Shown here: positions 3,978 through 48,740 of the stretch, piece after piece
How positions within the stretch are numbered: the stretch's first letter is position 1
How the letters are laid out: each line of letters starts with the position of its first letter
NCBI GenBank assembly: GCA_004555175.1
Contig: SFJE01000002.1
Coordinates: 32,333 to 96,332 of the forward strand
Direction of reading: 5' to 3'
Length of the DNA stretch: 64,000 nucleotides
DNA from: Lentisphaeraceae bacterium
Lineage (GTDB): Bacteria > Verrucomicrobiota > Kiritimatiellia > RFP12 > DVOR01
Translations under genes and position numbers: made by a program
Notes under the pieces: generated by a model
Told to the model about the DNA's origin: nothing
Seen by the model: the letters and a program-made list of their open reading frames with translations, nothing else
Database searches by the model: none

Positions 3978-4172
3978 TGCAGAAGGAAAGGAACGGCGGC
4001 GCGGATTATCACGCGGCGCGGAGAGAACTAACCGCTCGGCGAAGCGCAACTAATAAGGCCCCGTCTTATTGGCAATAAGACCCCGTCTTATTCGCAACAA
4101 GACCCCGTCTTATTGGCAACAAGGCGGGGCCTTATTTATTCAAGTCGCTCGGGAAGCGAGTTAACCCAGCGC
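3978..4172 (+). repeat. interspersed ~195-bp repeat element copy A, with 4 nested AAGACCCCGTCTT-type palindromic units
   Basis: About 97% identical to 30701..30895 in the same orientation. Contains 3 CCCC-type units and 1 GGGG-type unit. Confidence 0.9.
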
Positions 4173-4202
4173 TTCAGATAAGGGTGCAGCGCAAAAAGGG
4201 CT

Positions 4203-4230
4203 TTGCTTTTGGGGTTTGGTTTGCTACAAT
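4203..4230 (+). promoter_or_regulatory. sigma70-like promoter of metK (TTGCTT-N16-TGcTACAAT)
   Basis: -35 TTGCTT at 4203-4208, a 16-nt spacer, and extended -10 TGcTACAAT at 4222-4230. This predicts a 5' UTR of about 165 nt. Confidence 0.5.
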
Positions 4231-4400
4231 GTGCGGCACGTTTGCGTTGATTTGGAAAGCGCTCCGGCTTGCGGACGCAGACGTCTTGGAACTGCACGCT
4301 AAAATGGAGGCACCGGGAGTTTCCCCATGGCGGCGGCAGGACGTGCGAGTGCACGGTCTGTCGTTTTCTTTTGGGGGCTTTGCGGTCCTGAAAGGACACT

Positions 4401-5585: not shown

Positions 5586-5606
5586 TGCGGGCAGATAAGA
5601 GATGAA

Positions 5607-5660
5607 AGATGACAGCGGCCTGTCCGTTGAAGGACACGCCCTGTCATCTATTTCTATCAT
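5607..5660 (+). terminator. probable intrinsic terminator after metK
   Basis: Imperfect long hairpin (agatgacagcggcctgtcc ... ggacacgccctgtcatct) followed by a T-rich tract. Confidence 0.5.
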
Positions 5661-5740
5661 CTCCCCTCTATTTTTCTGCAAAGGTCTAACTTTTCTGCTA
5701 TAATGCGGGGCGTTGTATCACCGTTTTGATGGAGAGAGAC

Positions 5741-6001
5741 ATGAGCGCAACAGTGACCGTTGAAATCTGTATGGGCACCACCTGTTATGTGATGGGCAGT
5801 GCTCAATTAGCCGGTATTGCCGAACGCCTGCCGGAAGAGTGGAAGAGCTGCGTGACCGTGAAGGGAATGCGTTGCACTGGCGCTTGCCAGAAGGCTGAGC
5901 AGTTCGGGCGCGCCCCCTTTGTGCGGGTGAATGGCGAGATTATCGCCGAGGCGGACGAGGGGAAGATCCTCTCGGCCATTCGTGCGGCTCTTGAGCAGTA
6001 A
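5741..6001 (+). CDS. thioredoxin-like [2Fe-2S] ferredoxin (NuoE/HndA-like small subunit)
   Basis: Cys pattern CMGTTC ... CTGAC. GGAGAG RBS 5 nt upstream of the ATG at 5741. A TGcTATAAT promoter box lies at 5696-5704. Confidence 0.7.
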   Translation: MSATVTVEICMGTTCYVMGSAQLAGIAERLPEEWKSCVTVKGMRCTGACQKAEQFGRAPFVRVNGEIIAEADEGKILSAIRAALEQ

Positions 6002-31485: not shown

Positions 31486-31841
31486 TGGTGGAGGTGGCGG
31501 GAATTGAACCCGCGTCCAAAGCAGCTTCACAGCGATGTCTACGTGCGTAGCCGGATCTTTGTGTCGCGCAAGGCAAGCCAACCGGCGGGCCAGACCTTGA
31601 GCCACCCTTCATGATGGTACGGTTACGTGTTCCCGAGGGGCCGGTTCACGCAGAGACCTGCGGGTTGACGCGTCCGCCCTTAGCAGGTGTCAGGGGTTCA
31701 GCGACGGGCCAAAAAGGTTAGGCCGCGTAGGCGAAGTTATCGTTCGCAGTTAGGTTTTTGATCGATGTTTTACGGGGCCAACGATCATCCCCGGCACGCA
31801 ACCGAAGTTCCGACATGCCCTGTCGAGACCTGGTCACCCCC
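31486..31841 (-). ncRNA. ssrA: tmRNA (ssrA); encoded tag peptide ANDNFAYAA
   Basis: 5' end GGGGGUGACCAGG and 3' end GGACGCGGGUUCAAUUCCCGCCACCUCCACCA (T-arm plus CCA). Resume codon and tag ORF GCGAACGATAACTTCGCCTACGCGGCCTAA. Confidence 0.9.
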
Positions 31842-34312: not shown

Positions 34313-37300
34313 ATGAATTGGATGTGCGCGCACGGAATAGCTGCGGTTTGCTTATGGATCGGGACGCTGCTCCCGGGAGTGGCGGCAGCGACAAGCTTGG
34401 AGGGCGCAACGCTTTGGCGCGCAGTGCGCGAGCGCTTCCCGGAGCTAGCGTTGACCGAGGATGTTTCGCCGACGGTGCGCGTGGCCACGGATCGGGCCTC
34501 GCTTCAGGATGCCTTGACGGCGGCTGTAACCGAGGCGGGGGAGGACCTCATTCTCTTGGATGGTCGAACCTCAGCCGAATGGACGGGTTCAACCTCAGTG
34601 ACAGTAACGATGGCCAATGGCGGCATTACCGTGGTCTCCCAAAATCCCGAGACGGGCGACTTTGAAACGCCGGTCACCTTCAAGGGCTTTGGCTTTGCCG
34701 CCACCCTATCTGCCTCTGCGCCCCTGCGCCTAGCCAACTTCGCCATTGTCGAAGCCACGACACAGCAAGCGAGTCCCATTTTTTGCTGTGCGTTGAACTT
34801 TGTGGGTTCAGGTATGGTGGTTGGAAGCGCCCTTTCAATTGTTAACTGTGGCGCAACATCAAGTACGGTTTATGCAGGTGGCGTTTATGCAATGGGTTCA
34901 ACGGTTTCGCTTTACAACACAACCATCGCCAATACGTTCACAGCGTTGTATGGAGCGGTTACCACGACGAGTGCCACGGTGACCCTAACGCATTGCACCC
35001 TCTCCGGGAACAAGAGTGCCAATGGGACAACCGTGACGACTGTTACGCGCAACGGTTCTGATGCCACCGCCCTCAATTGTTGGATGCCCGATTCGGCGGC
35101 GGTGGTGACGATGGGCGCGGGGTTGCCCCATTGCGTGCCGAAGGCCTCCGACGCGGCTATTGATGGGGCGACGGCGGAGAGCATTCTCGCGTTCGATGCG
35201 CTCGGGCGAACGCGGAAGAGTGGCGCGGCGGCGGATTTGGGCGCAGTCGAGGTCCAGGAGAGCGTAACCGTGGAGCCGCCGGCGGACCTGGTGGCGATGC
35301 CGTCGGGTCCACGCCAGGTCTACCTGGGCTGGAGCGCCATTCCGCGGGCGCAGGGCTACACCCTTGCGCGCGCGAACTCCGAGGCGGGTCCGTGGGAGGA
35401 TATTTCGGCGCAGACGCTCTGGCGCTCGCCGGGAACGGGGCGCGCGGACACGATTGCTGGTTGGGCGAGTGCGCGCTTTGTCGCGGCCAAACCGGGGAGT
35501 GCGGCCTACTATCGTCTCTCGATTCTTGTGGAGGGACAGGAGACGATCCAGTGCGAGCCCATGTACGTTGAGACCCCGGCAGCGGAGGCCGTGTCTGCCT
35601 ACCATTCGCGTCCCGGGGCAACGCGGTGCATCTATCTGGACTTTACGGGCTATGTGGAGGACTCGGCTGCACTGGTCGCCGCCGCCCGCGAGGAGCTCTC
35701 GGAGCCAGAGATGACCTATATCGCCACAGCCCCCTTTGAATATGTTGGGCGCTTTGGCGATCGCTCGCAGGTCTACCCCACGGCCTCCGCCATTTACGAC
35801 ATTTGGCGAATGGTAGCCGAAGACTTCGCTGCTTTCGACGTGGATGTCACCACCGAGCCACCCGCGTATGAGGCGTTGGTGAAGGAATCGGATGAGGATG
35901 AGGTCTACGGCAAGCGAGTGGTCATTGGCTACGCGCAGGGGACCTCGAGCCCGTGGTATTCGGGCGGTGGGGCCTTTGCCGGCGGCGGGTACTTCGGCGA
36001 GCGCGTCGATCGGCCGGTCTTCATCTTCAGCGTCCAGTCGCGCCAGAACATTGCCGCGCAGGTCACGCATGAAGTCTCGCACACCCTCGGGCTCTCGCAC
36101 GATAGCGGCAATGTCTGGTTTGGCGACTTTCGTGGTTCGCAGACCTACTACCAAGGCGTGGAGCTCACCCGCAGTGGCGAATTGAACACGAGTGCCACCT
36201 GGGAGAGCAACATCACATGGTACCCGGTGATGGGCGCAGCCCCGACGGTCCAGAAGGCAACCACCTCCGCCGGCGAGTATTACTACTATGACAGTGGCGA
36301 CTTCATCAACCAGTGGAGCCGCGGCAGCTACGCCTCGGCCACGAACCAGGAGGACGACTTTGCCATCCTGCTCGGCCTAGCTGTGGGCTCCGGCACGCAG
36401 TTTGTTGGGGAGCCGGACTTTGAGGCTGCCGCGCGGAACCTGGTGCTGGCCGCGGATGAAGCCGGGGATACCCCCGCTCAGGCCGCTGACCTTGGCGCAC
36501 TGGATGTGGGCGGAGATCAAGCCGCGCAGGGGGTGATTGGCAAGCACGTCACCGAGGCAGGCGCGGTGACCGAGGATGTGGATTGCTACGCCTTGGAGGT
36601 CGCGCAGGGCGGCTGGCTGGAGGCGGCGGTGGTGCCCGGTTTTGAGGGACTAACTGAAGGTGCCTCGCTTGATGCCTGCCTCGAACTTCTCTCCCCCGAG
36701 GGCGATCTCCTCGCCCGCGCCGAGTTGCCCCTGGGCATTGTGGAGGAGGTCACCTTCTCGCGCGTTCGCGAGGCGGGGCTTCGGATGCTTGTGCCAGCGG
36801 CCGGGCGCTACATCCTGCGCGTCTCGGGCACCGTCCACCCCGTCTTTAGCACCACCCTTTCGCCCGACGGCTCGGCCTCGGCCGAGACCCCGTGGTTCTT
36901 CAATGACCGCGAGGCTTATGGCTCCATCGGCCCCTACTCGCTCTCGGCAACCCTCTCCGCAGCCTCGGCCGCAGACCTGCCCGCCTTCCCCAAGCCCCTC
37001 GCAGGCGACGACTCCGCCTACACCCCCGCCGCCCAGCGCGCCCTCTACCAAGCGGCCAACGGGAGTGTCCCCGTCTCAATCCGCGCCACCGATGGCCGCA
37101 CGGAGGTCCTCTCCGCCCAGGCCATCAGTGAAGCCCTCGCTTGCCTCTCCGGCGCGCTTGTCCCCGAGGGCGAAGGCCTAGCGCTCGACTATCGTTTTGA
37201 GGTGACCCATCTCACCCTCGCCGAGGATTCGCTGACCGTTACCGTCGCCCTCTCCTCGCCCTTGGAGGGGTGCGACATCGCCTTCGCCGAGGGCATCACC

Positions 37301-37441
37301 TTCATTCTAACCGACTGGCGCACGGGCTCGGAGATTCGCATCGAGGCCTCCGCCGTCACGGAAGTGGACGCACGCACCCGCCGCTTTGCCCTCACACCCC
37401 CCGCCGGACTCACCTGCTTCCGCGTTCGCGTAAAGCATTAG
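34313..37441 (+). CDS. secreted multidomain metzincin-type zinc metalloprotease (beta-helix repeats, FN3, HExxHxxGxxHD catalytic domain, PPC-like C-terminal domains)
   Basis: Signal peptide; HEVSHTLGLSHD motif. TATAAT at 34245 with AAGGA SD. Confidence 0.65.
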   Translation: MNWMCAHGIAAVCLWIGTLLPGVAAATSLEGATLWRAVRERFPELALTEDVSPTVRVATDRASLQDALTAAVTEAGEDLILLDGRTSAEWTGSTSVTVTMANGGITVVSQNPETGDFETPVTFKGFGFAATLSASAPLRLANFAIVEATTQQASPIFCCALNFVGSGMVVGSALSIVNCGATSSTVYAGGVYAMGSTVSLYNTTIANTFTALYGAVTTTSATVTLTHCTLSGNKSANGTTVTTVTRNGSDATALNCWMPDSAAVVTMGAGLPHCVPKASDAAIDGATAESILAFDALGRTRKSGAAADLGAVEVQESVTVEPPADLVAMPSGPRQVYLGWSAIPRAQGYTLARANSEAGPWEDISAQTLWRSPGTGRADTIAGWASARFVAAKPGSAAYYRLSILVEGQETIQCEPMYVETPAAEAVSAYHSRPGATRCIYLDFTGYVEDSAALVAAAREELSEPEMTYIATAPFEYVGRFGDRSQVYPTASAIYDIWRMVAEDFAAFDVDVTTEPPAYEALVKESDEDEVYGKRVVIGYAQGTSSPWYSGGGAFAGGGYFGERVDRPVFIFSVQSRQNIAAQVTHEVSHTLGLSHDSGNVWFGDFRGSQTYYQGVELTRSGELNTSATWESNITWYPVMGAAPTVQKATTSAGEYYYYDSGDFINQWSRGSYASATNQEDDFAILLGLAVGSGTQFVGEPDFEAAARNLVLAADEAGDTPAQAADLGALDVGGDQAAQGVIGKHVTEAGAVTEDVDCYALEVAQGGWLEAAVVPGFEGLTEGASLDACLELLSPEGDLLARAELPLGIVEEVTFSRVREAGLRMLVPAAGRYILRVSGTVHPVFSTTLSPDGSASAETPWFFNDREAYGSIGPYSLSATLSAASAADLPAFPKPLAGDDSAYTPAAQRALYQAANGSVPVSIRATDGRTEVLSAQAISEALACLSGALVPEGEGLALDYRFEVTHLTLAEDSLTVTVALSSPLEGCDIAFAEGITFILTDWRTGSEIRIEASAVTEVDARTRRFALTPPAGLTCFRVRVKH

Positions 37442-37467
37442 GCGCCGTATCCTCCCCCCACCCCACG

Positions 37468-37508
37468 AAGTTGGGTCTAGTTCACCACGAACTAGGCCCA
37501 ACTTTTTT
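37468..37508 (+). terminator. intrinsic terminator of the metzincin gene
   Basis: 16-bp stem aagttgggtctagttc / gaactaggcccaactt followed by TTTTTT. Confidence 0.7.
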
Positions 37509-37531
37509 GAGCGATGATTGGTGACCTGGCA

Positions 37532-37575
37532 CTAAAAGAAAACCATCAGGGGGCCTTGAGGAGGCCACCCTGATG
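37532..37575 (-). terminator. intrinsic terminator of the queD operon
   Basis: Hairpin catcagggggcc ... ggccaccctgatg with a T-run on the minus strand (AAAAGAAAA on plus). Confidence 0.6.
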
Positions 37576-37610
37576 ATTCTGGAGGAGGGGATCGGTCCCG
37601 AGATTGCGCG

Positions 37611-38033
37611 TTAGGGGCGATAGGTGGCGCAGGATTCGGGTGTCTCGCGGAGGGAGACGGCGGTGACGGGGAGGCCGCGAGCGGCGATCTTGGCGAAGAA
37701 GTGCTTGGCCAGGAGTTCGGAGGTGGTGCGGTGCGGGAGGGGATAGACGCGTAGGCCGTGCTTTTGGAGGACGGAAGCGATGTCGGTCTCAACGGCGGAG
37801 GTGGTGTTATAGAGGAAGGCGTGGTCGCAGCAGGAGACGATTTCCTCTTGGAGGACGGTCTTGACCTCCTTGAAGTCCATCACCATATCCTCCGGCTGGC
37901 CGGGGATGGGGGGAACGTTACCGAGCTCGACGGTGAGTTGGTAGGTATGGCCGTGGAGGTTACGGCACTGGCCGGCGTGGCCGGTGAGCAGGTGGGCGGC
38001 ATCGAAGGAGACGGTCTTGGTGACAATGAGCAT
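37611..38033 (-). CDS. queD: 6-carboxy-5,6,7,8-tetrahydropterin synthase
   Basis: PTPS fold motifs (CxxxHGH, catalytic H/E blocks). Confidence 0.85.
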   Translation of the reverse strand: MLIVTKTVSFDAAHLLTGHAGQCRNLHGHTYQLTVELGNVPPIPGQPEDMVMDFKEVKTVLQEEIVSCCDHAFLYNTTSAVETDIASVLQKHGLRVYPLPHRTTSELLAKHFFAKIAARGLPVTAVSLRETPESCATYRP

Positions 38034-38041
38034 GGCGGACC

Positions 38042-39322
38042 TCACGGGCGGGGGCGTTTAACGGCGGCAAAGAAGGGTTTTGAGCGGGCGCTCGCGGCGG
38101 CGGGCTTGGCTGGGCGCGGCGGACGGGGCTGGGGGGCACGCTTGGGGCGGACGGCCTCGGCGCCCATCGCGTTGCGAGCATGTTCGGAGTGGAAGGGCTG
38201 CTCGACATCTTGGGGGATGGGGCGGCCGATGAAGTGCTCGATGTCGCGCAGGGCTTGGCGGTCGTGCGGGCAGACGAGGCTGATGGCTTCGCCTTCGGCG
38301 CCGGCGCGAGCGGTGCGGCCAATGCGGTGAACGTAGGTTTCGGGCTCGTCGGGCAGGTCGTAGTTGATGACGTGGGTGACCTCGTCGACATCAATTCCGC
38401 GGGCGGCAATGTCGGTGGCCACGAGGACTTGGACCTTGCCCGAGCGGAAGCCTTCGAGGGCGCGCAGGCGGGCGGCCTGGCTCTTGTCGCCATGGAGGGC
38501 GGCGGCGGGGAAGCCATCGCGCGTGAGCTGCTTGCAGAGGCGGTCGGCCCCATGCTTCATGCGCGGAAAGACAATGACGCGGAAGCACTTGGGCGTATCG
38601 AGGACCCACTTGAGGAGGGAATACTTCTTCTCCTTATCCACAAAGAGGACGCGCTGGCGGATTGTGTCAACGGTCGGCGCCTCGGGGTTGATGCGAATGG
38701 AGACGGCGTGGCCCTGGATGAACTGCTTGGCCAAGGCCGTGACCTCCGGCGAGAGGGTGGCCGAGAAGAAGAGCGATTGGCGCTTGTGCGGCAATTTGGC
38801 CAGGACCTTGCGGATGTCGGGCAGAAAGCCCATATCAAGCATCCGGTCGGCCTCATCGAGCACCACCGCTTGGACGCTCTCGAGCGAGAGTGCGCCCTGC
38901 CCCTCCAGGTCCAAGAGCCGCCCGGGGGTGGCCACGAGCACGGCCACCCCCTTGGCCAAGGCCGCCACCTGCGGCTTGATGTTCACGCCGCCAAAGACCA
39001 CCGCACAGGGCAGGTCCAGCCCTTTGGCGTAGGCAGAGCAATTCGCCTCAATCTGCGCGGCCAGTTCGCGCGTGGGAGCCAAGATGAGCACCAACGGTCG
39101 TTTGGGGCGGAGCGTGGCGTGCGCCTGGGCGAGCCGGTGCAGGAGCGGTAAGGCGAAGGCGGCCGTCTTGCCAGTGCCGGTCTGGGCGCAGCCCATGAGG
39201 TGCTTGCCGGCGAGGATGGGCTTGATGGCCGCTTCCTGGATGGGCGTGGGGCGTTGATACCCCATCGCCGCGATGGCCTGTTGCAAGGCCGGGTGGAGAT
39301 GCGCGAAGACCGTCCCCTTCAT
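38042..39322 (-). CDS. DEAD-box ATP-dependent RNA helicase (RhlE-like) with basic C-terminal tail
   Basis: Q motif, AQTGTGKT, DEAD, SAT, HRIGRTAR. Confidence 0.9.
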   Translation of the reverse strand: MKGTVFAHLHPALQQAIAAMGYQRPTPIQEAAIKPILAGKHLMGCAQTGTGKTAAFALPLLHRLAQAHATLRPKRPLVLILAPTRELAAQIEANCSAYAKGLDLPCAVVFGGVNIKPQVAALAKGVAVLVATPGRLLDLEGQGALSLESVQAVVLDEADRMLDMGFLPDIRKVLAKLPHKRQSLFFSATLSPEVTALAKQFIQGHAVSIRINPEAPTVDTIRQRVLFVDKEKKYSLLKWVLDTPKCFRVIVFPRMKHGADRLCKQLTRDGFPAAALHGDKSQAARLRALEGFRSGKVQVLVATDIAARGIDVDEVTHVINYDLPDEPETYVHRIGRTARAGAEGEAISLVCPHDRQALRDIEHFIGRPIPQDVEQPFHSEHARNAMGAEAVRPKRAPQPRPPRPAKPAAASARSKPFFAAVKRPRP

Positions 39323-41055
39323 TGGCGCGCCTCCCGCCGCTTGCCGGGATGGCCCTTGCCGCGGCCCTTAAAGTTGCCCTTGAAGGGGCCCTTACGGCCC
39401 TTGGGGCCTTTGGGGCGGGGCGACTCGGGGGTAGCCTCCACGAACTTGGGGTTGAGCGGCCGGCCATCAAAGTCGGCCTCGCACAAGGCTTCTAGGACGC
39501 GCTCGCCGAGTTCGGCGCGCACATCGAAGAAGGCGAACTCACGCTTGATGGCAATGGCTCCGATGTCCGAGGCTTGAATACCGGCCAGTTCGCAGGCCAA
39601 GCGGACAACGGCGCCCTCGCGCAGGTGGTCTAGTCGCCCCACGTGGAGCATCAGGCGCTTGCGCTCACCGAAGGCCGCGTCGCGTTCGGCGCGGGAGGGA
39701 GCGGCCACGGGGTTGAGGTCTCGCGCGTCTTCATAGGCCTCCATCAACGAACTCAGGCGCAGCTGGAGGATACGCGCCAGGACCTCGGTGGCGGAGAGTT
39801 GGCCCATCAGCGGGGCCACGGCCGGCAAGAGCTCCTGGATGGCCGGGTTAATCTCCTGGACCTGGCGGACCTGTTCGGCCAGCCAGAAGACGTGCTTTTG
39901 GCGGACATCGTCGGCAGTCGGGATGGCGCGCTGCTCGAAGCGCAGACCGCAGATGCGCTCGATGAGGCGGAGCTTCTGGCGGTCGCGCGGGGTGACCAAG
40001 GTGATCGAGATGCCCGCCTTGCCGGCGCGGGCGGTGCGGCCGGAGCGATGGGTGTAGACGGCCGCGTCATCGGGCAGATGGTAGTGAATGACATGGGTGA
40101 TGTCCTCGACATCCAGGCCGCGCGCGGCGACATCGGTGGCCACGAGGATGCGGACAGCCTTGTCGCGGAACTTGCGCATCACCGCGTCGCGTTGGGCCTG
40201 GGAGAGGTCGCCGTGGAGGGCTTCGGCGTAGACGCCATCGTGCATCAACGCCTCGCTCAGCTTCTGGGTGTCGGCCCGCGTGCGGCAGAAGACCAAGCCA
40301 TACATTTCGGGAACGAAGTCGATAATCCGCCGCAGGGCACCGTAGCGATTCTTCTCGGCCACGGCGTAGGCGTGGTGCTCAATATTGGCCTGGGCCACAT
40401 TGCGCGTGCCGACGGTAATCTCTAGGGGCTGGTGGATGTAGCGCCCGGCGATGGCCTCGACTTCTGGCGGCATCGTGGCCGAGAAGAGCCACTTCGCGGC
40501 AGAAGCCGGCACGCGCTCGAGAATGAAGTCAAGCTCCTCGCGAAAACCCAGGTCGAGCATCTCGTCGGCTTCGTCAAGGACGCAGGTACGCACCGTGTCT
40601 AGGGCGATAGCCTCGCGCCGGAGGAGGTCGCAGAGTCGCCCGGGGGTGGCCACCACCACCTGCGCCCCGCGTTCAAGCTTGGCAATCTGCTGGCCGATTG
40701 GCGCGCCGCCGTAGCAAGCCACCACGCGCACCTGCGCCAGGTGCTTGGCAAAGCGGGCCAACTCCTCGCCAATCTGCAAGCAGAGTTCACGCGTTGGGGC
40801 CAGAATCAGCCCCTGCACGGAGGTCGCTTCGCCTTGAACCCGGGCCAAGAGCGGCAGACCGTAGGCGCAGGTCTTGCCAGTGCCCGTGGCAGCCAGGGCC
40901 ACGCAGTCGGGCGCCTCGGCAGCCAACAGGGGCGGAATAGCGGCAGCCTGAATCGGCATCGGGGCCTTAAAGCCCAGCCCCTCAACGGCCCGCAGCAACG
41001 GCTCGGGCAATCCCAAACTCCGGAACTCTCCGGTCTCTTCGCACATCGTCATCAA
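39319..41055 (-). CDS. DEAD-box RNA helicase with DbpA/CsdA-like C-terminal RNA-binding domain
   Basis: ATGTGKT, DEAD, SAT, HRSGRTAR, plus a C-terminal DbpA-like region and an RGG/K-rich tail. Confidence 0.9.
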   Translation of the reverse strand: MMTMCEETGEFRSLGLPEPLLRAVEGLGFKAPMPIQAAAIPPLLAAEAPDCVALAATGTGKTCAYGLPLLARVQGEATSVQGLILAPTRELCLQIGEELARFAKHLAQVRVVACYGGAPIGQQIAKLERGAQVVVATPGRLCDLLRREAIALDTVRTCVLDEADEMLDLGFREELDFILERVPASAAKWLFSATMPPEVEAIAGRYIHQPLEITVGTRNVAQANIEHHAYAVAEKNRYGALRRIIDFVPEMYGLVFCRTRADTQKLSEALMHDGVYAEALHGDLSQAQRDAVMRKFRDKAVRILVATDVAARGLDVEDITHVIHYHLPDDAAVYTHRSGRTARAGKAGISITLVTPRDRQKLRLIERICGLRFEQRAIPTADDVRQKHVFWLAEQVRQVQEINPAIQELLPAVAPLMGQLSATEVLARILQLRLSSLMEAYEDARDLNPVAAPSRAERDAAFGERKRLMLHVGRLDHLREGAVVRLACELAGIQASDIGAIAIKREFAFFDVRAELGERVLEALCEADFDGRPLNPKFVEATPESPRPKGPKGRKGPFKGNFKGRGKGHPGKRREARQ

Positions 41056-41064
41056 TCGTCATCC

Positions 41065-42321
41065 TTAAATCATCGCCGCTTGCAGAGCGCGGGCGAAAGC
41101 CTCGGCATCCGCCGGCAGGCCCAACTCCACTTCGGAGGCATAGGCCACGGCCGTCCCGGGACCCGAGGCGCGCCCATGCGTGCCGCGAATTCGCTCGACC
41201 GCTTGCGACACATGCCACGGCACGCGCCCAAAGAAGAGCTCGCAGGGGTCGAAGCCCGGCTTGTTGTGAATATCAACGTGCGTGGCATAGTCCGGCGCCT
41301 CGCGCGGATCCTGCCACCACGGCCAGGCAAACCAACAGCCCGGCTTGGCCTCGGCAATCCAGTCCGGCCCCTCGCCACCAGGCCCGGGGAGGACACTTTC
41401 CACTTGCGGCAGGGCGGCCAAGACCGCGCGGGCGGCCTCGGAGGCGGATTCGTCCTGCACATAGAGCAAAACCACCTGGTGATCGCAAATCGCCACCGCG
41501 CGGCTCCGGTAGAAATCGGGATAGGCCATCTGGCGAATGGTGCGCGTGGCGAAAAGGCCGCTCTCGCGCAGGGCCCGATTGGGGAAGGCCACACCGGTGG
41601 CCCCAGGCAAGGTGGGGGTAATGGCGTAGTCGCCGGCAATGATCAGCGCATAGCCCTCGCGCCGGGCGGCCTCGGCCACCGCCTCAATCTGCCGCAAGGC
41701 GTGTTGGAGCGAAGCGGCCGCGCGCGGATGATCCGGCCCGTGGCGCTGCAAATCGTAATCCAAGGTCGGCAGATAGGCCAATATCACCTCGGGCGCATCG
41801 CCGCGTTGCAAGCGGCCAATCAGCGCCTGAGCAATCCCCCACCCCACCTTCGGCGAAGCCAGCGGCCCCCAATAGCGCCAGAGCGGGATTGGATTCTCCA
41901 CGCCCAGAACGCGCGTCGGCTTTTGGTAGGTGGCCATAATCAGCCCGCCGCCGTGGGTGTGTATCGGCGCAGGCGAGACAATCTCATCAACCGCCTCGCC
42001 CAGCAACTGCTGAAAGAAGTAGAGCCCCACCCGCGCGCCCCGCTGCCGAGCCGCTTCCCAAATCCGCGCCCCGTGCACCAACTTGGCCGACTGGTTCCAG
42101 AAGGCCGGAGCCATCGTCTCGCGGAAGTAGCGCCCATTGGCCGGCATCCCGTGGACTTCTGGCGCCAGCGCGGTCCGCAAGGTGGCCTGCGCGGTGCAGG
42201 TGACGGCCGGGAAGGCTGGCGCCATCGCCCGAATGGGCAGCCCTGCTAGACGCGTAATGCGGTGCTTGGCCAAAAGGTCTGCACCCAAGGCCGCAACCGA
42301 GAGTATGAGGAGCTTCTTCAC
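41065..42321 (-). CDS. alkaline-phosphatase-superfamily nucleotide pyrophosphatase/phosphodiesterase (NPP-like)
   Basis: Type I phosphodiesterase blocks. GTG start with AGGAGG RBS, overlapping the upstream stop (GTGA). Confidence 0.6.
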   Translation of the reverse strand: MKKLLILSVAALGADLLAKHRITRLAGLPIRAMAPAFPAVTCTAQATLRTALAPEVHGMPANGRYFRETMAPAFWNQSAKLVHGARIWEAARQRGARVGLYFFQQLLGEAVDEIVSPAPIHTHGGGLIMATYQKPTRVLGVENPIPLWRYWGPLASPKVGWGIAQALIGRLQRGDAPEVILAYLPTLDYDLQRHGPDHPRAAASLQHALRQIEAVAEAARREGYALIIAGDYAITPTLPGATGVAFPNRALRESGLFATRTIRQMAYPDFYRSRAVAICDHQVVLLYVQDESASEAARAVLAALPQVESVLPGPGGEGPDWIAEAKPGCWFAWPWWQDPREAPDYATHVDIHNKPGFDPCELFFGRVPWHVSQAVERIRGTHGRASGPGTAVAYASEVELGLPADAEAFARALQAAMI

Positions 42322-42839
42322 GGCGCCTCCTGCCCGGCCGCTTGCTCTAGGTGCTGCGAGCGCACGCGCGCTTCGCCTTGAGCCGCAGGGTCATACAGAA
42401 AAGGCTCCTCCCAACCATCCTCCAAGGCCGCTTGGCGCAGCAATCCCTCGCTAACCAACTCCTCCAGCTTTGCCGGCGCGCTCCCCCCATAGGCCAGCGA
42501 ATACTCCAAGAGTGCCGCCCGGATTTGCCGCAAGCGCAGGAGCGTTACCCGCCGCGCTTCAACGCCGGGCATCACATAGCGATACCATGAGCCTGTTGCG
42601 TCATCCGTTTGATAGGCCTCGCCCGGGGCCTTGACCGCCCGGCCGAGGTTTCCATAGCAAATGCCAATCCCCATGCCGATGGTAATAGCCGCAATCACGG
42701 CACAGACCGGCCCCGAGAAACGAGCGGCACGCGCCTGTTTCTGGCGCGCCAAACGCCTCTCCGGCACCCGGCTCTTCGCCTGAGAGGGGCGCCGGAGAGA
42801 GGCTTTGGGGCGATGGCGTCTGCGCCGGACGTGTGCCAT
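42318..42839 (-). CDS. hypothetical single-TM protein, weak GspG-pseudopilin-like C-terminal region
   Basis: Basic N-terminus, one TM helix, LLEYSLAYGG ... DPAAQGE block. Start overlaps the glyA stop (TAATG). Confidence 0.35.
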   Translation of the reverse strand: MAHVRRRRHRPKASLRRPSQAKSRVPERRLARQKQARAARFSGPVCAVIAAITIGMGIGICYGNLGRAVKAPGEAYQTDDATGSWYRYVMPGVEARRVTLLRLRQIRAALLEYSLAYGGSAPAKLEELVSEGLLRQAALEDGWEEPFLYDPAAQGEARVRSQHLEQAAGQEAP

Positions 42840-44524
42840 TACGGCACCGGGAAGTGCGCCACGAGCGCGCGCACCTCTTCACGCACGCGCTGCTGGAGCG
42901 CGGTGTCTTCGGGCGACTTGAGGATCTCGACGATCCAACCGCCGAGCTTGACCATCTCGGGCTCCTTCATTCCGCGCGTGGTCACCGCAGCGGTACCGAT
43001 GCGGATACCGGAGGTGACGAAGGGGCTCTCGGTGTCGTAGGGGATGGTGTTCTTGTTGCAGATGATGCCCGCAGCATCCAACGCCGCGGCCGCCAGCTTA
43101 CCCGTCAGCCCCGAGGCCTTCACGTCCACCAGGAAGAGGTGGTTATCCGTGCCCCCGGAGACGAGCCGGAAGCCAGCCTCCTGCAACACCTTTGCCAGCG
43201 CCTGCGTATTGGCGACAATCTGCGCGGCATAGGCGTGCGCATCGCGGTGGAGCCACTCGTTAAAGCAAACCGCCTTGGCCGCGATAACATTCTCCAGCGG
43301 ACCGCCCTGGATGCCCGGGAAGACCGTCTTATTGATGGCCCCGATGTACTTCTCCTTGCAGAGAATGAGGCCCGAGCGCGGGCCGCGCAAGGTCTTGTGT
43401 GTAGTGGTGGTCACGAAGTCGGCATAAGGCACCGGCGAGGGGTGAACGCCGCCAGCAATCAGACCGGCAATGTGGGCCATATCCACCATCAAGTAGGCGC
43501 CCACCTTGTCGGCAATCGCCCGGAAGCGGGCAAAGTCAATCACGCGCGGATAGGCCGAAGCGCCCGCCAAGATGAGCTGGGGCTTGACCTCCATCGCCTG
43601 CGCCTCAATCGCGTCATAATCGAGCTGCTCGGTCTCCTTGTTCACCACGTAGGGGACAATGTTGTAGAGCTTGCCCGAGAAGTTCACCGGCGAGCCGTGG
43701 CTCAAGTGGCCGCCCTGATCCAGGCTCATCGAGAGAATCGTGTCACCCGGCTTGAGCATCGCAAAAAAGACCGCCATATTCGCCGCGCTGCCGCAGTGCG
43801 GCTGGACATTCGCCGCCTCGGCCCCGAAGAGCTTCTTGGCGCGCTCGATGGCCAACTGCTCGACCGCGTCCACCGGCAAACATCCGCTATACCAGCGCTT
43901 GCCCGGATAGCCCTCGGCGTACTTGTTATTCAGCACCGAGCCCTGCGCCTCGCGCACGGCCGCGGAGGTGTAGTTCTCCGAGGCTATCAGGTTGACCGTC
44001 TCATCCTCCTGCTTCACCTGCGCGACAATCGCCGCATGCACCTCAGGGTCGGCCCACGCCAAGAGCGAAGACTCGGCCAGACGGCCCGCGCGGTCGCACT
44101 TCACCAGGCGTCGGGCGTGACGCTCAGCCCCCGAGAACGGCGTATCCAGCCACACGCCCAGGGCGCGCTCGGCCGCAGCCTCGCTCAACGCGCGGGCCGA
44201 AAGGATTAGGACATTGGCATCATTATGCTCGCGCGAGAGCTTCGCCACCGCTTCATCGGTGACAATCGCCGCGCGAATACCGGTGAAACGGTTGGCCGTG
44301 ATGCTCATCCCAATCCCCGTCGAGCACAATAGCACCCCGCGATCGGCCTTCTTCTCCAAAACCGCCTCGCAGACCGCCACCGCAAAGTCCGGATAGTCAT
44401 CAGCGGCTTCGGCGTTGAATGAACCCACATCCACCACCGTCTCGCCGCGCGCTTCCAGCACCGCAGCCAACTTCGCCTTCAGGGCTACGCCCGCATGATC
44501 GCAACCAATCGCAATCGTACTCAT
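42839..44524 (-). CDS. rpiB-glyA: fusion protein: ribose-5-phosphate isomerase B (N-terminal ~145 aa) fused to serine hydroxymethyltransferase
   Basis: RpiB signature IAIGCDHAG ... [11 protein letters not shown] followed in the same frame by SHMT blocks [36 protein letters not shown]. Start at MSTIAIG with AGAGGAG upstream. Confidence 0.8.
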
Positions 44525-44609
44525 CTCTCTCGTATGCTCCTCTTTCGGAATGTCGAATAAAGAAAACGGCGAAAGTATACCACAATCCCACCCCGTACGC
44601 GCACAATGC

Positions 44610-46748
44610 CTACGGCAGAAAGACGAGTTTGCCACCCTTACTATTCTTGAAAAGAGCCTCTGGCGGGAACCAATCTGGCCGTAGCCCCGTGCGATAATCG
44701 TTGGTGCGATAGAGCGCAAAGTTCAAGTGAAGTTGTGGGGCGGAGGGATCTGCAGCATCGGGCCGATAGCCGTCAATCAGTGTGGTGGTCAAACCATAGA
44801 GTGCGCGCGAATCATAGGTGGGCGTGCGGACGCACAGCACGGGCTTGCCAGCCTCAAGTGAGGCCTTGATCCGCGGGAGCAAGAGCGGCAGGGTGACTTC
44901 ATCCAGCGTAACGATGGGCCCAAGGAGGGCTCTCGTCTGCTCTGGCGTGAGCCCCACTGCGCGCGCCTCCGTGGCGAAACTGGGCGGAATCTGCGAGGGG
45001 CCCGGCTTGAGTTGCAGGGCGCGGGTGCAACTCGCATCAAAGTCCTCGGGGAAGGCCCCGGCATAGAGTCCGGCCTCCTCGGCAAGAGAGATGGCCCAAT
45101 GGTAGGCGGCCGCAAGGTCTTGGATTGTGGGGCTATAGCGCGCATAGGGGCAACCGGGGAGGATGTTGTTGGGCTGCAGATGGAGGCGTTGACAGTTGAA
45201 ATCGGGCTTCTTGCTAGTCTTCCCAACAGGATGATGCCAGAGGGCCATCAACTTCACCAAGGCACACGCGCCGCTCTTGTTATAGAGGTAGCCTTCGGAA
45301 TCGTAGTGCAAATCGCGCGGTGGGACGGTGTAGCCATCTAGCAACAACGCTGGCACTTCGTCCACCTCTTTCGGCAGCGTAACCTGATGGCACTCAGGAG
45401 AGTACGCCACGCCATAGGCATTCTTGGCATAGGCGCGCACATACAGCGTAGAGCCGGGCTTGAGACCGGTGATGCGCGTGGTGTCACGCCAATCCGAAAA
45501 GCCCCAAAGCGGCCAAAGCCCCTGCTTGATGGTGGGGTTGGGGGTGGACGCGTAGCAAAAGCCGTAGTCGGTGTAGGGCTCTTCTCCGCGGAAGTGCACG
45601 GTGAGGGTGGCGCGCAGGCTGGTGGGCAAGAGCTCGCGGGGCTCTTCCAGGTGAACCACTGGCAACATCGAGCGCTTGAGCGCTTGCCCGGAGAGGCGGC
45701 TTGCGGGGACGGTCACCGTCACCTCTGCGCCCGTTTCATCCTGGGGTCCAAAGGTGATCTCAACGCCCGTGGGCAGGCAGTTAGGGAGGCGATTAGGCGG
45801 GTCACTCTCGACCGAGAAGTCATCTCCCTCACGAAAGATCGCCAAGGGACTCTCTGGCTTGATGCGCTCATAGCGGAAACGCCCGGGCGCGACCTGCACC
45901 CGTTGATACCCTTCCTTGGCGTTGGGGTCCGGGGCCGAGCGCCCGCGGAAGTAGGGATCGCGCTTGCGATAGGAATAGACCAAGTCGGGCGTGCCGTGAT
46001 AGGGATCAGACTGTGGCACGTTAATATAGTAGATAAGGATGCCGCCGCGCGGAGAGTACGAATCTGTAACCTTCCCGATGGTGTTCTCTGTGGGGCCGTT
46101 GTCAAAGGTCTGCACCTCATCGGGTTCATACTCCAAGTGCAGGAGGTAGTTAGGGTGCTCGGTGGGGATAAAGATGCCCAGGGGTGTCTTGCCATCAAAC
46201 TCGCCCCAGCGCGGGGCCAACTTCACTGTGGTGCTTTGGTGCAGCGTGGGATAGGCTGCCGCCGGCAACAGACCGCAATAGCGGTAGCGGCAGTAGAGCG
46301 GCGCGGTAGGCCCGCCGCCGGCGATGACGGGATGACCGGGAATGCCGTTATCCTTCTGCGGAGCGTGATAGGTGTCAGGAGCACCCAGCACATGCCCCAA
46401 CTCGTGAATCATCGTGCTGGCACCCCCCTCGGCTTTGACGATAATGCGCGAGTTCGGCCACAAAGGCTCCCCCCAGGCAATGTAGAAGTTGGGGTTGTAA
46501 TCCTTGAGCGGATCTATGTCGCGATCCTCGCGGAAGCCGACGGCCCGCCGTTCATCTTCACTCTGGGAGTAGTGACTGACGGGGTAAAGCTTGCGCAACT
46601 CCGGCAACTGCTCCAGCGAGCGCGGATGGGTTGAATCCTTGCTGGTGACCGGCAGAATCTTCGTGGCGTAGGCCAGCACGCGCACATCCACCTTATCAGC
46701 CCGTTTGGAGGAGCTCCTCAACGCCGCAACACCCCCACCACTCCACAT
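44610..46748 (-). CDS. putative HExxH zinc metallopeptidase (M6/InhA-like motif [13 protein letters not shown]) with FN3-like region; N-terminus uncertain
   Basis: No signal peptide or RBS at any in-frame start; the ORF opens with TTG at 46775. Possibly truncated. Confidence 0.45.
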
Positions 46749-46974
46749 GCTAGCCGCGTGCGCGTGTGCACGCAAGTCGACAGTGAACAGTCGACAGGAC
46801 GCGGCAAGCCGCGACGGACGGGCTCTCGTTAGAAGTATTGAGCTTCATCGTTTCAGACTTTCGCTTGTTCGTCGCGTTAGCGCACGGCGACTCGACTGTC
46901 GACTATTCACTCTCCTCTGTCGGCCGGGCGCAACCTCCCCCATGCCGGGCGAAAACCTCCTCCCGGGGCGGGAG

Positions 46975-47047
46975 GAATTATTAAGACCCCGTCTTAATTC
47001 AAACAAGACGGGGTCTTATTTGCAATAAGACGGGGTCTTATTAGTTT
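46975..47047. repeat. partial copy C of the palindromic-unit repeat (3 AAGACSSSGTCTT units, mixed orientation)
   Basis: ttattaagaccccgtcttaatt ... aagacggggtcttatt ... aataagacggggtcttatt. Confidence 0.8.
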
Positions 47048-47188
47048 GTATATGGGCGAGAGGCAATTTCCTGGTGGTGTGATTGAAATGGCCCTTGCGT
47101 GAAGGCGGCGCAGAAGGTGCGAATGGGCCTAGCGCAAAGGCCAGACGCGTTGCAAGTGGGAGTGCTGTCACGTGCACATCGAGTAAGG

Positions 47189-47202
47189 GGATGTGCTATA
47201 AT
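47189..47202 (+). promoter_or_regulatory. extended -10 promoter GGATGTGCTATAAT of dnaB
   Basis: Same GGATGTGSTATAMT box as at 3693, 11449 and 18448. GGAG SD at 47218 and ATG at 47229. Confidence 0.5.
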
Positions 47203-47228
47203 GCGGCCTCTTTTTTGGAGCAGGTGAT

Positions 47229-48740
47229 ATGGCAGCGGGACAACGGAAACCAAAGCGGAATGCAGCAACAATCGGAGCGGATCGTGCACTGGAAGCGCCT
47301 TTGGCGCGGCAGGTGCCGCAGTCGATTGAGGCGGAGCGGGCGCTGTTGGGGGCGATTTTGATTGATAGCGCGCGCGTGCTGGAGTTGTGCGCGGCCAAGC
47401 GGGTGGTGCCGGAGGCCTTTGTTGAGCCGGCCCATCGGCGCATCTACACGGCAATGATGCATCTCTCTTCGCGCGGGATGCCGGTGGACGCAGTGACGCT
47501 CGGGGAGTGTCTGCGGGGAATGCAGGAGGAGGCGGCGAGTGCAGTGGGGCTGGAGATGCTCTCGGAGTTGGTGATTTCGACGCCGACGAGCGCGCACGCT
47601 GGCTACTATATTGGCGTGGTGATGGAGCAGTATCTGCGCCGGCAGATTTTGGGCGTGACGCGGGAAATCGAGGAGCGGGTCTACGACCCGGCACAGGGGG
47701 CGGACTATGTGCTGGGCGAAGCGGAGCAAGCGATTTTGGCCATTGGCGAGGGGCGGGCGCAGCAGGGCTCGACGGTGGATTGGAAGACTTCGGTGGGCGA
47801 GACCTTGGCGATGCTGACGCGGCAGTTGGATGCGCCGGGGCAACTGTCGGGGCTTTCGACGGGCTTCAAGGCGCTCGACGAGAAGACGCGCGGGATGCAC
47901 AAGGGGGCGATGATTGTGCTGGCGGCGCGCCCGGCGATGGGCAAGACGTCGCTGGCGATGAACGTGGCCGAGTGCGTGGCGCGCGGGCTGGACATTATGG
48001 GCCGGCCAATCAAGAGCGCCGATGGGCTGCGCCACAAGCACACGGTGCTGGTCTTTTCGCTGGAAATGCCGCAGGTGCAGTTGACCACGCGTATGCTCTG
48101 TGGAATGGCGGAGGTTTCGGCGCGCGAGGTGGAGCGCGGGCAGTTTGTGAAGAAGGAAGTGGTGTTGCCGCGGCTGAATGCGGCGGCGCGCGAGCTGGCC
48201 GATACACCGATTCTCTGCGATGACCAGGGCGGGTTGGATGTGTTGGAACTGCGAGCGCGGGCACGGCATATCCACAAGAAGACGCCCGTTGACCTGATTG
48301 TGATTGACTACCTGCAGCTGCTGGGCTACCGTGAGTATTCCGCGCAAGGTCAGCAGGTGATGGTCTCGAAGATCTCCGGCGAAATTAAGGCGATGGCCAA
48401 GGAGCTAAATGTGCCGGTGCTCGTGCTCTCGCAGCTCTCGCGTAATAGCGAAAACCGCAATGGCGACGAGCGGCCGAGGAACTCGGACTTGCGCGACTCG
48501 GGCGCGATCGAGCAGGACGCGGATATGATTTGGCTCCTGCGCCGCCCGAGTTATATGGGTTCGCGCGTGCCCGAGCACGACGACCGGCTGCTGGCGATTG
48601 TCGACGTCTCAAAGAACCGCAATGGCGCCACCGGCGAAGTGCGGTTGAACTTCGATGGCAGTATCACGCGCTTCAAGGACCGAATTGAGACGAACCCGGA
48701 GATGATGGGCGGCGATATGGAGCCAGTGGATACGCCTTAA
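47229..48740 (+). CDS. dnaB: replicative DNA helicase
   Basis: DnaB N-domain, Walker A ARPAMGKTS and RecA-like C-domain blocks. Confidence 0.95.
   Translation: MAAGQRKPKRNAATIGADRALEAPLARQVPQSIEAERALLGAILIDSARVLELCAAKRVVPEAFVEPAHRRIYTAMMHLSSRGMPVDAVTLGECLRGMQEEAASAVGLEMLSELVISTPTSAHAGYYIGVVMEQYLRRQILGVTREIEERVYDPAQGADYVLGEAEQAILAIGEGRAQQGSTVDWKTSVGETLAMLTRQLDAPGQLSGLSTGFKALDEKTRGMHKGAMIVLAARPAMGKTSLAMNVAECVARGLDIMGRPIKSADGLRHKHTVLVFSLEMPQVQLTTRMLCGMAEVSAREVERGQFVKKEVVLPRLNAAARELADTPILCDDQGGLDVLELRARARHIHKKTPVDLIVIDYLQLLGYREYSAQGQQVMVSKISGEIKAMAKELNVPVLVLSQLSRNSENRNGDERPRNSDLRDSGAIEQDADMIWLLRRPSYMGSRVPEHDDRLLAIVDVSKNRNGATGEVRLNFDGSITRFKDRIETNPEMMGGDMEPVDTP

Follow-up and report, generated by a model that had tools for sequence, protein, structure and literature searches.

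A single minus-strand reading frame in the 64-kb stretch of DNA analysed here (the window) encodes an RpiB-type sugar-phosphate isomerase followed, in frame, by a serine hydroxymethyltransferase (SHMT). The locus raises the question of whether the two enzymes are truly joined in one polypeptide and, if so, how the fusion arose and what it might do for the cell.

Integrity of the RpiB-SHMT reading frame

The stop-free minus-strand frame covers 42839..44719 in the ORF list, and the ATG at 44524, which is kept in the aligned homologues, gives a protein of 561 aa that is identical to MGN0856153.1 from Candidatus Spyradenecus sp. in GenBank. The preliminary description of this DNA had read the frame as a complete RpiB ahead of a full-length SHMT and had proposed domain HMMs as a check. 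Both Pfam and NCBIfam profiles found the two halves intact, with scores exceeding the curated cut-offs. The Pfam family LacAB_rpiB (PF02502) matched aa 4-141 over profile positions 1-136 of 138 with 165.3 bits (cut-off 24.7), and SHMT (PF00464) matched aa 157-531 over positions 3-399 of 399 with 514.7 bits. The NCBIfam rpiB equivalog TIGR01120 scored 150.3 bits, above its curated cut-off of 138.65, and the SHMT model NF000586 reached 616.9 bits against a cut-off of 335, spanning aa 159-560 and profile positions 1-403 of 404. No second copy of rpiA, rpiB, or glyA was found within the 64-kb window. The coordinates of the gene, its parts, and its neighbors are collected in Table 1.

Table 1. Features of the fusion locus (positions in the window)
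Feature	Position	Strand	Remarks
RpiB-SHMT fusion gene	42839..44524	minus	561 codons + stop at 42839-42841
RpiB domain, aa 1-148	44081..44524	minus	PF02502, TIGR01120; closes with helix 134-148 (AF2 model)
Junction turn, aa 149-153 (LAESS)	44066..44080	minus	AF2 model; sole non-helical part between both enzymes
SHMT domain, aa 154-561	42842..44065	minus	PF00464, NF000586
Spacer, 85 nt, between upstream same-strand gene and fusion	44525..44609	minus	GAGGAG Shine-Dalgarno-like element
173-aa protein	42318..42839	minus	one predicted membrane helix; ATG overlaps fusion stop by 1 nt
Same-strand run, tightly packed	37611..42321	minus	three junctions are 4-nt overlaps
NPP-type phosphodiesterase	41065-42321	minus	domain search
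DEAD-box helicase with DbpA domain	39319-41055	minus	domain search
DEAD-box helicase	38042-39322	minus	domain search
QueD/PTPS	37611-38045	minus	domain search

Alignments with solved RpiBs extend to aa 143-145, and those with solved SHMTs begin at aa 153-159. The AF2 monomer model (pTM 0.82) passes from the last RpiB helix (134-148) through a 5-residue turn (149-153) into SHMT helices from aa 154, with a pLDDT of ∼88-89 over aa 141-160, indicating that the junction is ordered. The join is ∼5 residues between two helices and not the ∼40-aa linker described earlier, a count that probably included the N-terminal SHMT helix. In all fused forms, the RH and SEN motifs lie 47-51 aa apart. Within the Kiritimatiellia group, the junction motif 'xxERHxRRLxKxDRxGRLxE' is kept; the fused PVC/Verrucomicrobiota loci L004, L006, and L008 retain the canonical 'FEGGRH' end. 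Our search of the PDB returned no chain covering both domains.

In other phyla, separate rpiB and glyA genes are often directly adjacent, with 43-144 nt between matched ends, so one sequencing error that introduced a frameshift or hid a stop could mimic a fusion. However, the identical 561-aa protein occurs on seven contigs, and the six examined each come from a different sample or assembly (NCBI, ENA, Logan). Within the gene, each of these six shows 31-81 nucleotide differences from the window, all of them synonymous (7-25 in the RpiB part, 22-54 in the SHMT part, and 0-2 in the junction); the flanking proteins on the same contigs carry 1-53 amino acid replacements. The fusion gene is thus under strong purifying selection. 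Moreover, the length and sequence of the junction are conserved, and more than 120 homologue clusters at 66-100% identity share the architecture and length, with both Pfam domains present in all of the best 120. The chance that an assembly or sequencing artefact merged the two genes is vanishingly small, and the earlier reading that no stop or frameshift separates the halves holds. Together, these data show that a complete RpiB and a complete SHMT are truly encoded in frame as one fused protein.

Active sites and predicted activities

The RpiB half aligns over its full length with the solved, stand-alone RpiBs of Clostridium thermocellum (3he8), Thermotoga maritima (1o1x), and Escherichia coli (1nn4), with all active-site residues present; its top PDB matches are themselves authentic RpiBs. 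The cysteine of the LLCSTGIG motif, previously proposed as the active-site residue, is Cys67 (codon 44324-44326), which corresponds in the alignment to catalytic Cys66 in the E. coli enzyme. In the alignment, Asp9, His10, Cys67, Thr69, His100, and Asn101 match all three structures; we take the E. coli counterparts to be Cys66 with Thr68, Asp9/His10, and His99/Asn100. The C-terminal phosphate-binding Arg-His...Arg is formed by Arg135, His136, and Arg139, presumably Arg133/His134/Arg137 in E. coli RpiB, and is invariant in fused homologues. Conservation was assessed in 18 fused homologues at 41-100% identity and in 64 at 66-100%. The catalytic and phosphate-binding residues were invariant in both sets, Thr69 excepted, a position that holds Thr or Ser (Thr in at least 90% of the 64). 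The window protein also has a one-residue insertion before the RH motif ('GAERH' versus 'EGGRH'). The conserved residues point to a predicted ribose-5-phosphate isomerase of the non-oxidative pentose-phosphate pathway.

The SHMT half aligns in a single stretch (aa 156-554) with residues 5-403 of Bacillus stearothermophilus SHMT (1kkj), a separate protein of ∼62% identity, and the offset is 151 at both ends. Its PLP lysine is Lys377 (codon 43394-43396) in a T-T-T-H-K motif, and Tyr202, Glu204, Tyr212, His273, Asp348, His351, and Arg508 are also present, presumably equivalent to Tyr51/Glu53/Tyr61/His122/Asp197/His200/Arg357 of the B. stearothermophilus enzyme. These catalytic residues are invariant in fused homologues, with Glu204 found in at least 90%. 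When the SHMT half of the AF2 model was compared by Foldseek, it superposed on 4ot8 and 1kkj with a target-normalised TM score of 0.93, an rmsd of 2.6 Å, and 60-62% identity. As modelled, this half is a fold type I PLP enzyme with the SHMT fold. It is predicted to catalyse folate-dependent serine/glycine interconversion, in which PLP on Lys377 would serve the reversible conversion of serine and tetrahydrofolate to glycine and 5,10-methylene-tetrahydrofolate.

Other roles for either half had to be weighed against these assignments. The preliminary description had suggested that the RpiB-like domain may have a different substrate, in which case it would be an isomerase for allose-6-P, galactose-6-P, erythrulose-4-P, or a sulfo-sugar, with SHMT tied to another pathway. 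Such a role could be accommodated by a family (RpiB/LacAB) that spans several specificities, including LacA/B, DerI, and actinobacterial Rpi, and PF02502 is named in two papers about sulfoquinovose degradation. The Kiritimatiellia-type domain, moreover, has a CSTG/CTTG motif and 'xxERH' in place of 'EGGRH'. Nevertheless, we do not favour this reading and regard it as improbable, as TIGR01120 is the only specificity model to exceed its curated cut-off, whereas LacB (94 versus 234), LacA (71 versus 164), DerI (79 versus 240), and RPI_actino (125 versus 168) all fall short. The closest structures and the invariant Cys/Thr/His/Asn and Arg/His/Arg sets likewise argue for ribose 5-phosphate, and the ancestral unfused neighbor of glyA in Mycoplasma and Bacillus is a housekeeping RpiB. 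It is more improbable still, to the point of being scarcely credible, that one half has lost catalysis and serves as a scaffold or regulatory domain, in which case the protein would be monofunctional, either an SHMT bearing an RpiB-derived appendage or an RpiB bearing an SHMT-derived one. GenBank records do label each member as just one of the two, "ribose 5-phosphate isomerase B" or "serine hydroxymethyltransferase," but these single names come from annotation pipelines. Even in fused homologues of 41% identity, both halves keep all their catalytic residues, and the strain divergence described above is synonymous-only in both.

Distribution, origin, and earlier records

We scanned the GTDB species genomes and read the gene order in the best 80 loci. 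Among these, single-ORF fusions were found only in eight PVC MAGs (Kiritimatiellae, Pontiella, Verrucomicrobiota), and the source records name the fusion carriers as Ca. Spyradenecus sp., Kiritimatiellae, and Victivallales. The search in related genomes that had been proposed at the outset thus located the fusion across PVC relatives. Separate, adjacent rpiB and glyA genes, in that order, occur in Desulfobacterota, Bacillota, Alphaproteobacteria including Pelagibacter, Planctomycetia, Omnitrophota, and Eggerthellales; at least 20 loci, from at least eight lineages, have the unfused pair 43-144 nt apart. A further gene lies between them in Bacillaceae (630-900 nt). The unfused pairs of Mycoplasma mycoides JCVI-syn and B. 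subtilis (ywlF...glyA) have the same enzymes, order, and strand as the fusion, but they encode two polypeptides, which leaves stoichiometry and assembly free to vary. Co-transcription of rpiB and glyA is on record for the minimal Mycoplasma genome (M. mycoides JCVI-syn _0800/_0799). In 37 of the best 80 loci, rpiB is preceded on its own strand by an LMW phosphatase gene, and triple phosphatase-RpiB-SHMT fusions were also found (L006, P0123, and P0127). The linkage takes three forms: neighboring genes in many phyla, fusions whose junctions are of at least two unrelated types, and triple fusions that include the LMW phosphatase.

This gene order suggests an ancestral string in which the LMW phosphatase, rpiB, and glyA were separate cistrons, and the fusion would have formed when the stop codon and the short spacer between rpiB and glyA were lost. 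We would place the loss of the rpiB stop in an ancestor within the PVC superphylum, with the fusion then retained by purifying selection. In neighbour-joining trees of 58 SHMT-half and 49 RpiB-half sequences, monophyly of the fused sequences received bootstrap support of at most 14 in 100 replicates for both halves. The classes of junction sequence are a weaker argument than trees on the number of fusion events.

The fusion is genuine but ordinary, an already known architecture. The pairing had not been recognised as standard in the preliminary description, but it recurs across PVC bacteria, stems from a conserved rpiB-glyA pair, and is already in print. Our literature search found passing remarks (Minf_1669 in 2008 and Limisphaera in 2026) and no dedicated study of the fusion, nor any enzymatic, expression, or structural work on a fusion member. 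An RpiB with an additional SHMT domain is recorded in Limisphaera and "different verrucomicrobia," where the authors treat RpiB-SHMT as the ribose-5-phosphate isomerase of the non-oxidative pentose-phosphate pathway (Life 2026;16:1543, PMC13608581). Compared by description, the Limisphaera type shares the order of an N-terminal RpiB and a C-terminal SHMT in a single ORF and belongs to the PVC/Verrucomicrobiota lineage, whereas the window protein falls on the Kiritimatiellae/Ca. Spyradenecus side and carries a conserved junction of a distinct type. Minf_1669 of Methylacidiphilum infernorum V4 consists of an LMW phosphatase, RpiB, and SHMT (Hou et al. 2008, PMC2474590). Like the window protein, it joins RpiB and SHMT in one polypeptide of a PVC bacterium; unlike it, the window protein has no phosphatase domain, and its first residue is the RpiB methionine. 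Upstream of that start, the in-frame sequence overlaps the preceding gene, and no LMW phosphatase (LMWPc) homologue was found within the 64-kb window.

Several other fusions (DHFR-SHMT, DHFR-thymidylate kinase-SHMT, FolB-SHMT, and MeaB-SHMT) indicate that SHMT likewise tolerates large N-terminal additions and that it has repeatedly been joined to enzymes of related function. Except for MeaB, those partners belong to folate/thymidylate metabolism and have an obvious pathway link, whereas RpiB shares no step with SHMT.

Proposed role and gene neighborhood

Our data very probably describe a bifunctional housekeeping enzyme that arose from two merged neighboring cistrons; its activities, oligomeric state, and selective benefit are predicted from the features above. 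Because the isomerase and SHMT reactions share no intermediate, each domain would most likely act independently. The fusion would instead fix equal, co-regulated expression of two nucleotide-precursor streams, one providing ribose 5-phosphate, the precursor of PRPP, and the other supplying purine-ring and dTMP synthesis with glycine and one-carbon units. In B. subtilis, glyA is a member of the PurR regulon, and the effector of PurR is PRPP. The RpiA and RpiB families show negative phyletic coupling, which fits a housekeeping role for RpiB in those organisms that carry it. The parent enzymes RpiB and SHMT are both obligate dimers with active sites built from two subunits. Given these two parents and the short, ordered joint, the fusion would be expected to form a defined oligomer with both dimer interfaces in place. 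As no shared metabolite links RpiB and SHMT, the nucleotide-precursor rationale is a suggestion, and the fusion could be selectively neutral.

A tighter metabolic connection has also been suggested. From the domain composition of Minf_1669, Hou et al. (PMC2474590) proposed for the methanotroph that the fusion couples serine-pathway (formaldehyde/one-carbon) assimilation to the pentose-phosphate pathway, which could involve a metabolic hand-off or allosteric cross-talk. By Rosetta-stone logic, the recurrent fusions, the differing junction types, and the conservation of the gene pair in many phyla would agree with such a coupling. We nonetheless consider it very unlikely, since no substrate or product is common to the two reactions and the protein displays only canonical, independent active sites. 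The same linkage exists in Bacillus, Mycoplasma, and Pelagibacter, which, to our knowledge, have no serine cycle. The window organism is named as a Ca. Spyradenecus/Kiritimatiellae-type MAG and not a methylotroph, and the methanotroph rationale is unlikely to apply to it. A direct interaction between RpiB and SHMT behind the linkage, for example as allosteric tuning of one-carbon flux by pentose-phosphate levels or as a phosphatase-regulated complex, is slightly more plausible but still unlikely. If true, the fused PVC protein would offer a model for a complex assembled non-covalently in Bacillus, Mycoplasma, or Pelagibacter.

The bifunctional reading has a practical consequence for annotation. 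GenBank and IMG label fusion members by one of the two activities only, so automated metabolic reconstructions can wrongly score one pathway as incomplete; this affects MAGs of Kiritimatiellia, Lentisphaerota, and Verrucomicrobiota, where the pathway scored in error may be the non-oxidative pentose-phosphate pathway or else serine/glycine one-carbon metabolism. The fusion also serves as a Rosetta-stone pointer to a link within the widespread string of LMW phosphatase, rpiB, and glyA.

Finally, we inspected the genes around the fusion. The preliminary description had placed it at the head of a long minus-strand operon. The same-strand run downstream is borne out, and the NPP-like phosphodiesterase, the two DEAD-box helicases, and QueD/PTPS named there were identified by domain search; that the fusion heads the operon is uncertain, as a same-strand gene ends at 44610, 85 nt upstream. 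The 173-aa neighbor, earlier called GspG-like, does show weak C-terminal similarity to T2SSG (PF08334), but the match is confined to aa 122-169 and is sub-threshold (E 0.021, 15.3 bits, below the 21-bit cut-off), and no G/FTLIE-type prepilin motif was seen at the N terminus of the translation. The gene for this protein adjoins the fusion only in close relatives (L001 and L081-L086). It is shared, together with the NPP gene, with L001 (86% identity), and L002-L008 share none of the neighbors. The operon was considered as a functional clue to the fusion and rejected; because the cluster is conserved in close relatives only, the neighborhood says nothing about the fusion's function.

Regarding the upstream region, a consensus scan for promoters and terminators over 37000-47500 did not yield more sites than shuffled controls did, and the spacer itself contained no site. 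Because glyA is often under the control of ZTP, THF, or glycine riboswitches, the Rfam models were also applied; there was no match above the gathering thresholds anywhere in the window, nor any with E ≤ 1 in the interval 44400-44750. By eye, the spacer contains a candidate extended -10-like string, TGgTATACT, at ∼44574-44582.

Architecture and authenticity of the fused gene

The minus-strand frame encoding the RpiB-SHMT fusion is free of stop codons over 42839..44719, and translation from the ATG at 44524 yields a 561-aa protein. This start residue is common to the homologues in an alignment of fused proteins, and extending the frame beyond it would run into the preceding gene, whose end lies at 44610. 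The preliminary description of a complete RpiB and a complete SHMT in a single frame was borne out by domain models. Pfam placed LacAB_rpiB at residues 4-141 (profile 1-136 of 138, 165 bits) and SHMT at residues 157-531 (profile 3-399 of 399, 515 bits), and NCBIfam gave 150.3 bits for the rpiB equivalog TIGR01120 (cut-off, 138.65) and 616.9 bits for the SHMT model NF000586 over residues 159-560 (cut-off, 335).

A linker of ~40 amino acids had been proposed between the domains, which our alignments show to be incorrect. T. maritima RpiB ends at residues 143-145 of the fusion, with other solved RpiBs aligning equally far, and solved SHMTs align from residues 153-159, residue 5 of the B. stearothermophilus enzyme corresponding to residue 156. 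In an AlphaFold2 model built with 64 homologues as input (mean pLDDT 84.6, pTM 0.82), the RpiB C-terminal helix (134-148) leads through a five-residue turn (149-153) into the SHMT N-terminal helices (154-158 and 160-175), with a pLDDT of ~88-89 over the joint. RpiB and SHMT are fused essentially end to end. Comparison with solved structures found no PDB chain covering both domains.

The idea that a sequencing or assembly artefact had joined two genes is refuted by the recurrence of the fusion. The identical 561 residues are encoded on seven contigs, and GenBank holds the exact protein, under Candidatus Spyradenecus sp., as MGN0856153.1 and MGN0885907.1. The six contigs examined, each traced to a distinct sample or assembly (two from NCBI, two from ENA, and two Logan runs), share 93-98% DNA identity with the window. 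Each differs from it at 31-81 nt of the 1686-nt gene, and every difference is synonymous (7-25 in RpiB, 0-2 in the junction, and 22-54 in SHMT). In these strains the proteins flanking the fusion carry 1-53 residue differences from the window. The pattern shows strong purifying selection on the entire fused frame and takes the place of the read-level check suggested in the preliminary description. In a collection of 5.8 billion proteins, both Pfam domains were present in every one of the best 120 clusters (66-100% identity), with lengths of 551-563 aa save for two fragments.

Predicted activities and possible rationale of the fusion

We aligned the RpiB half to RpiB of E. coli, T. maritima, and C. 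thermocellum. In the E. coli numbering of the structural literature, Asp9/His10 and His100/Asn101 match active-site residues Asp9/His10 and His99/Asn100, Cys67/Thr69 match the catalytic base and its partner (Cys66/Thr68), and Arg135/His136/Arg139 match the phosphate-binding Arg133/His134/Arg137. An offset of 151 to B. stearothermophilus SHMT, the same at either alignment end, identifies Tyr202, Glu204, Tyr212, His273, Asp348, His351, Lys377 (the PLP lysine), and Arg508 in the SHMT half. Among 18 fused homologues with identities as low as 41%, and among 64 nearer ones, each of these residues in both halves is either invariant or conserved to at least 90%, and the SHMT part of the model matches solved SHMTs with a TM of 0.93. 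Both halves look catalytically competent, and the protein is very probably a genuine bifunctional enzyme. A different substrate for the RpiB-like domain had been considered; the models for LacA, LacB, DerI, and actinobacterial Rpi all score under their curated cut-offs, so this reading is not favored and appears unlikely. RpiA and RpiB behave phyletically as alternatives, which fits RpiB as the housekeeping isomerase where it is present.

Because the two reactions have no metabolite in common, each domain would run its own canonical reaction independently. The fusion could lock in 1:1 co-expression of two activities that feed nucleotide synthesis, one supplying R5P for PRPP and the other supplying glycine and one-carbon units from which purines and dTMP are made. 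We give this co-expression rationale an even chance against its rivals, namely that the fusion is a neutral merger or that RpiB and SHMT interact directly. The proposed link between the two supplies has a regulatory counterpart in B. subtilis, where glyA belongs to the regulon of PurR, whose effector is PRPP. In the parent enzymes, the C-terminal helix of RpiB and the N-terminal helix of SHMT, which meet at the joint, make subunit contacts; the short conserved joint would imply a defined oligomer.

Distribution and ancestry

The fusion has already been described and is found widely among PVC bacteria. Hou et al. 2008 (PMC2474590) called Minf_1669 of Methylacidiphilum infernorum an "unusual protein", having an SHMT domain and domains homologous to LMW phosphatase and RpiB. 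Minf_1669 is a triple fusion, whereas the window protein has two domains and lacks the phosphatase. An RpiB carrying an extra SHMT domain has also been noted for Limisphaera and "different verrucomicrobia" (Life 2026;16:1543, PMC13608581). Literature searches found no biochemical, structural, or expression study of an RpiB-SHMT fusion, and the window protein is a further member of a family already noted descriptively. Its members are named after one activity of two, a caveat for annotation.

We scanned GTDB with one genome per species and classed 80 loci by whether both halves lie in one stop-free frame. In this sample, ranked by match score and so over-representing loci with both genes, single-ORF fusions occur in L001-L008 only (Kiritimatiellae from sheep rectum and goat rumen, a Kiritimatiellia MAG, a Pontiella sp., a "PVC group" MAG, and three "Verrucomicrobiota" MAGs), and separate, directly adjoining rpiB and glyA, with 43-144 nt between matched ends, in 20/80. 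The latter hosts comprise Syntrophobacteraceae, Desulfobacterales, Tepidanaerobacteraceae and other Bacillota, Erysipelothrix, Eggerthellales, Alphaproteobacteria (BAL199, Pelagibacter), Planctomycetia, and Omnitrophota; in Bacillaceae and relatives, one gene lies between the two. In the minimal Mycoplasma genome, expression of glyA (_0799) needs read-through from rpiB (_0800) upstream. The fusion descends from adjacent genes, co-transcribed at least in Mycoplasma.

In 37 of the 80 loci, rpiB is preceded on the same strand by an LMW phosphatase gene. The phosphatase immediately precedes the RpiB-SHMT region in L004-L008; in L006 the two are joined, and this complete triple fusion has the CTGNTCRS P-loop. 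None adjoins the fusion in L001-L003 or occurs anywhere in the 64-kb window. When 1.84 billion representatives were searched exhaustively, RpiB plus SHMT appeared in approximately nine 50%-identity clusters, two of which (P0123 and P0127) also have an N-terminal LMW phosphatase domain. The picture is of an old gene string, phosphatase, rpiB, glyA, which keeps together across bacteria and of which the last two or all three merged in PVC bacteria.

The junction sequences fall into several mutually unalignable classes: one of Kiritimatiellia type (xxERHxRRLxKxDRxGRLxE), one of Pontiella/Verrucomicrobiota type that keeps the canonical FEGGRH ending and has variants in L005 and L007, and others, all with 47-51 aa from the RH motif to SEN. 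This diversity of sequence hints at more than one fusion event; neighbor-joining trees of the SHMT and RpiB halves (58 and 49 sequences) supported monophyly of the fused sequences in at most 14 of 100 bootstraps.

As called, P0123 and P0127 start with the Met inside the phosphatase motif CRSPMAE and are without the CX5R P-loop. These short starts look like gene-calling errors rather than dead domains, since L006 (128-2329) has the full P-loop CTGNTCRSPMAE in frame. Other N-terminal SHMT fusions in the protein library (P0133, P0140, P0147, and P0236) are DHFR-SHMT, DHFR-thymidylate kinase-SHMT, FolB (dihydroneopterin aldolase)-SHMT, and MeaB GTPase-SHMT. Source labels for the window clade are inconsistent. 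Candidatus Spyradenecus is classified by NCBI under Lentisphaerota (Lentisphaeraceae incertae sedis), and in the GTDB-based collection the species-representative genome nearest to the window (L001, 86% identity) is labeled Kiritimatiellae.

Genomic neighborhood

Features around the fusion gene (window coordinates)
Feature	Position	Strand	Remark
tmRNA gene, full-length	31486-31841	-	Rfam RF00023, 160.6 bits
QueD/PTPS	37611-38045	-	4-nt overlap with preceding gene
DEAD-box helicase	38042-39322	-	4-nt overlap with preceding gene
DEAD-box helicase with DbpA domain	39319-41055	-	9-nt gap to preceding gene
NPP-type phosphodiesterase	41065-42321	-	4-nt overlap with preceding gene
173-aa membrane protein	42318-42839	-	start overlaps fusion stop codon by 1 nt
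RpiB-SHMT fusion	42839-44524	-	RpiB aa 1-148, SHMT aa 154-561
TGgTATACT string	~44574-44582		candidate lead only, in spacer
Upstream gene	44610-46775	-	HEXXH zinc-protease-like motif
DnaB replicative helicase	47229-48740	+	divergent from fusion cluster

The fusion had been described as heading a long minus-strand operon. The genes that follow it are genuine and closely spaced. On its upstream side, another gene of the same strand stops 85 nt away, and the fusion is therefore not necessarily the first cistron. Rfam and consensus scans of this 85-nt spacer found no riboswitch, terminator, or consensus promoter. The whole downstream set lies beside the fusion in the same species only (contigs L081-L086), in part in L001, and not at all in L002-L008.

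The 173-aa protein has an Arg/Lys-rich N terminus, one hydrophobic helix, and a weakly T2SS-G-like C terminus (E 0.021, below cut-off); in sister assemblies its start is called 29-30 codons further downstream, giving 143-144 aa. The tandem DEAD-box helicases are ~43% identical to each other, the first carrying the DbpA RNA-binding domain. In the upstream gene, no Pfam domain was found, with a weak Peptidase_M6 match (E 0.19). It is a 721-aa mechanical ORF in the window versus 903-910 aa called in sister strains (L081/L082 ~3200-5915), and its N-terminal region could not be aligned from one strain to another (window 46729-46882 versus ~670 nt in L082). The tmRNA is the sole Rfam family at gathering score in the 64-kb window. 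The divergent DnaB arrangement is kept in every sister contig long enough to show it.
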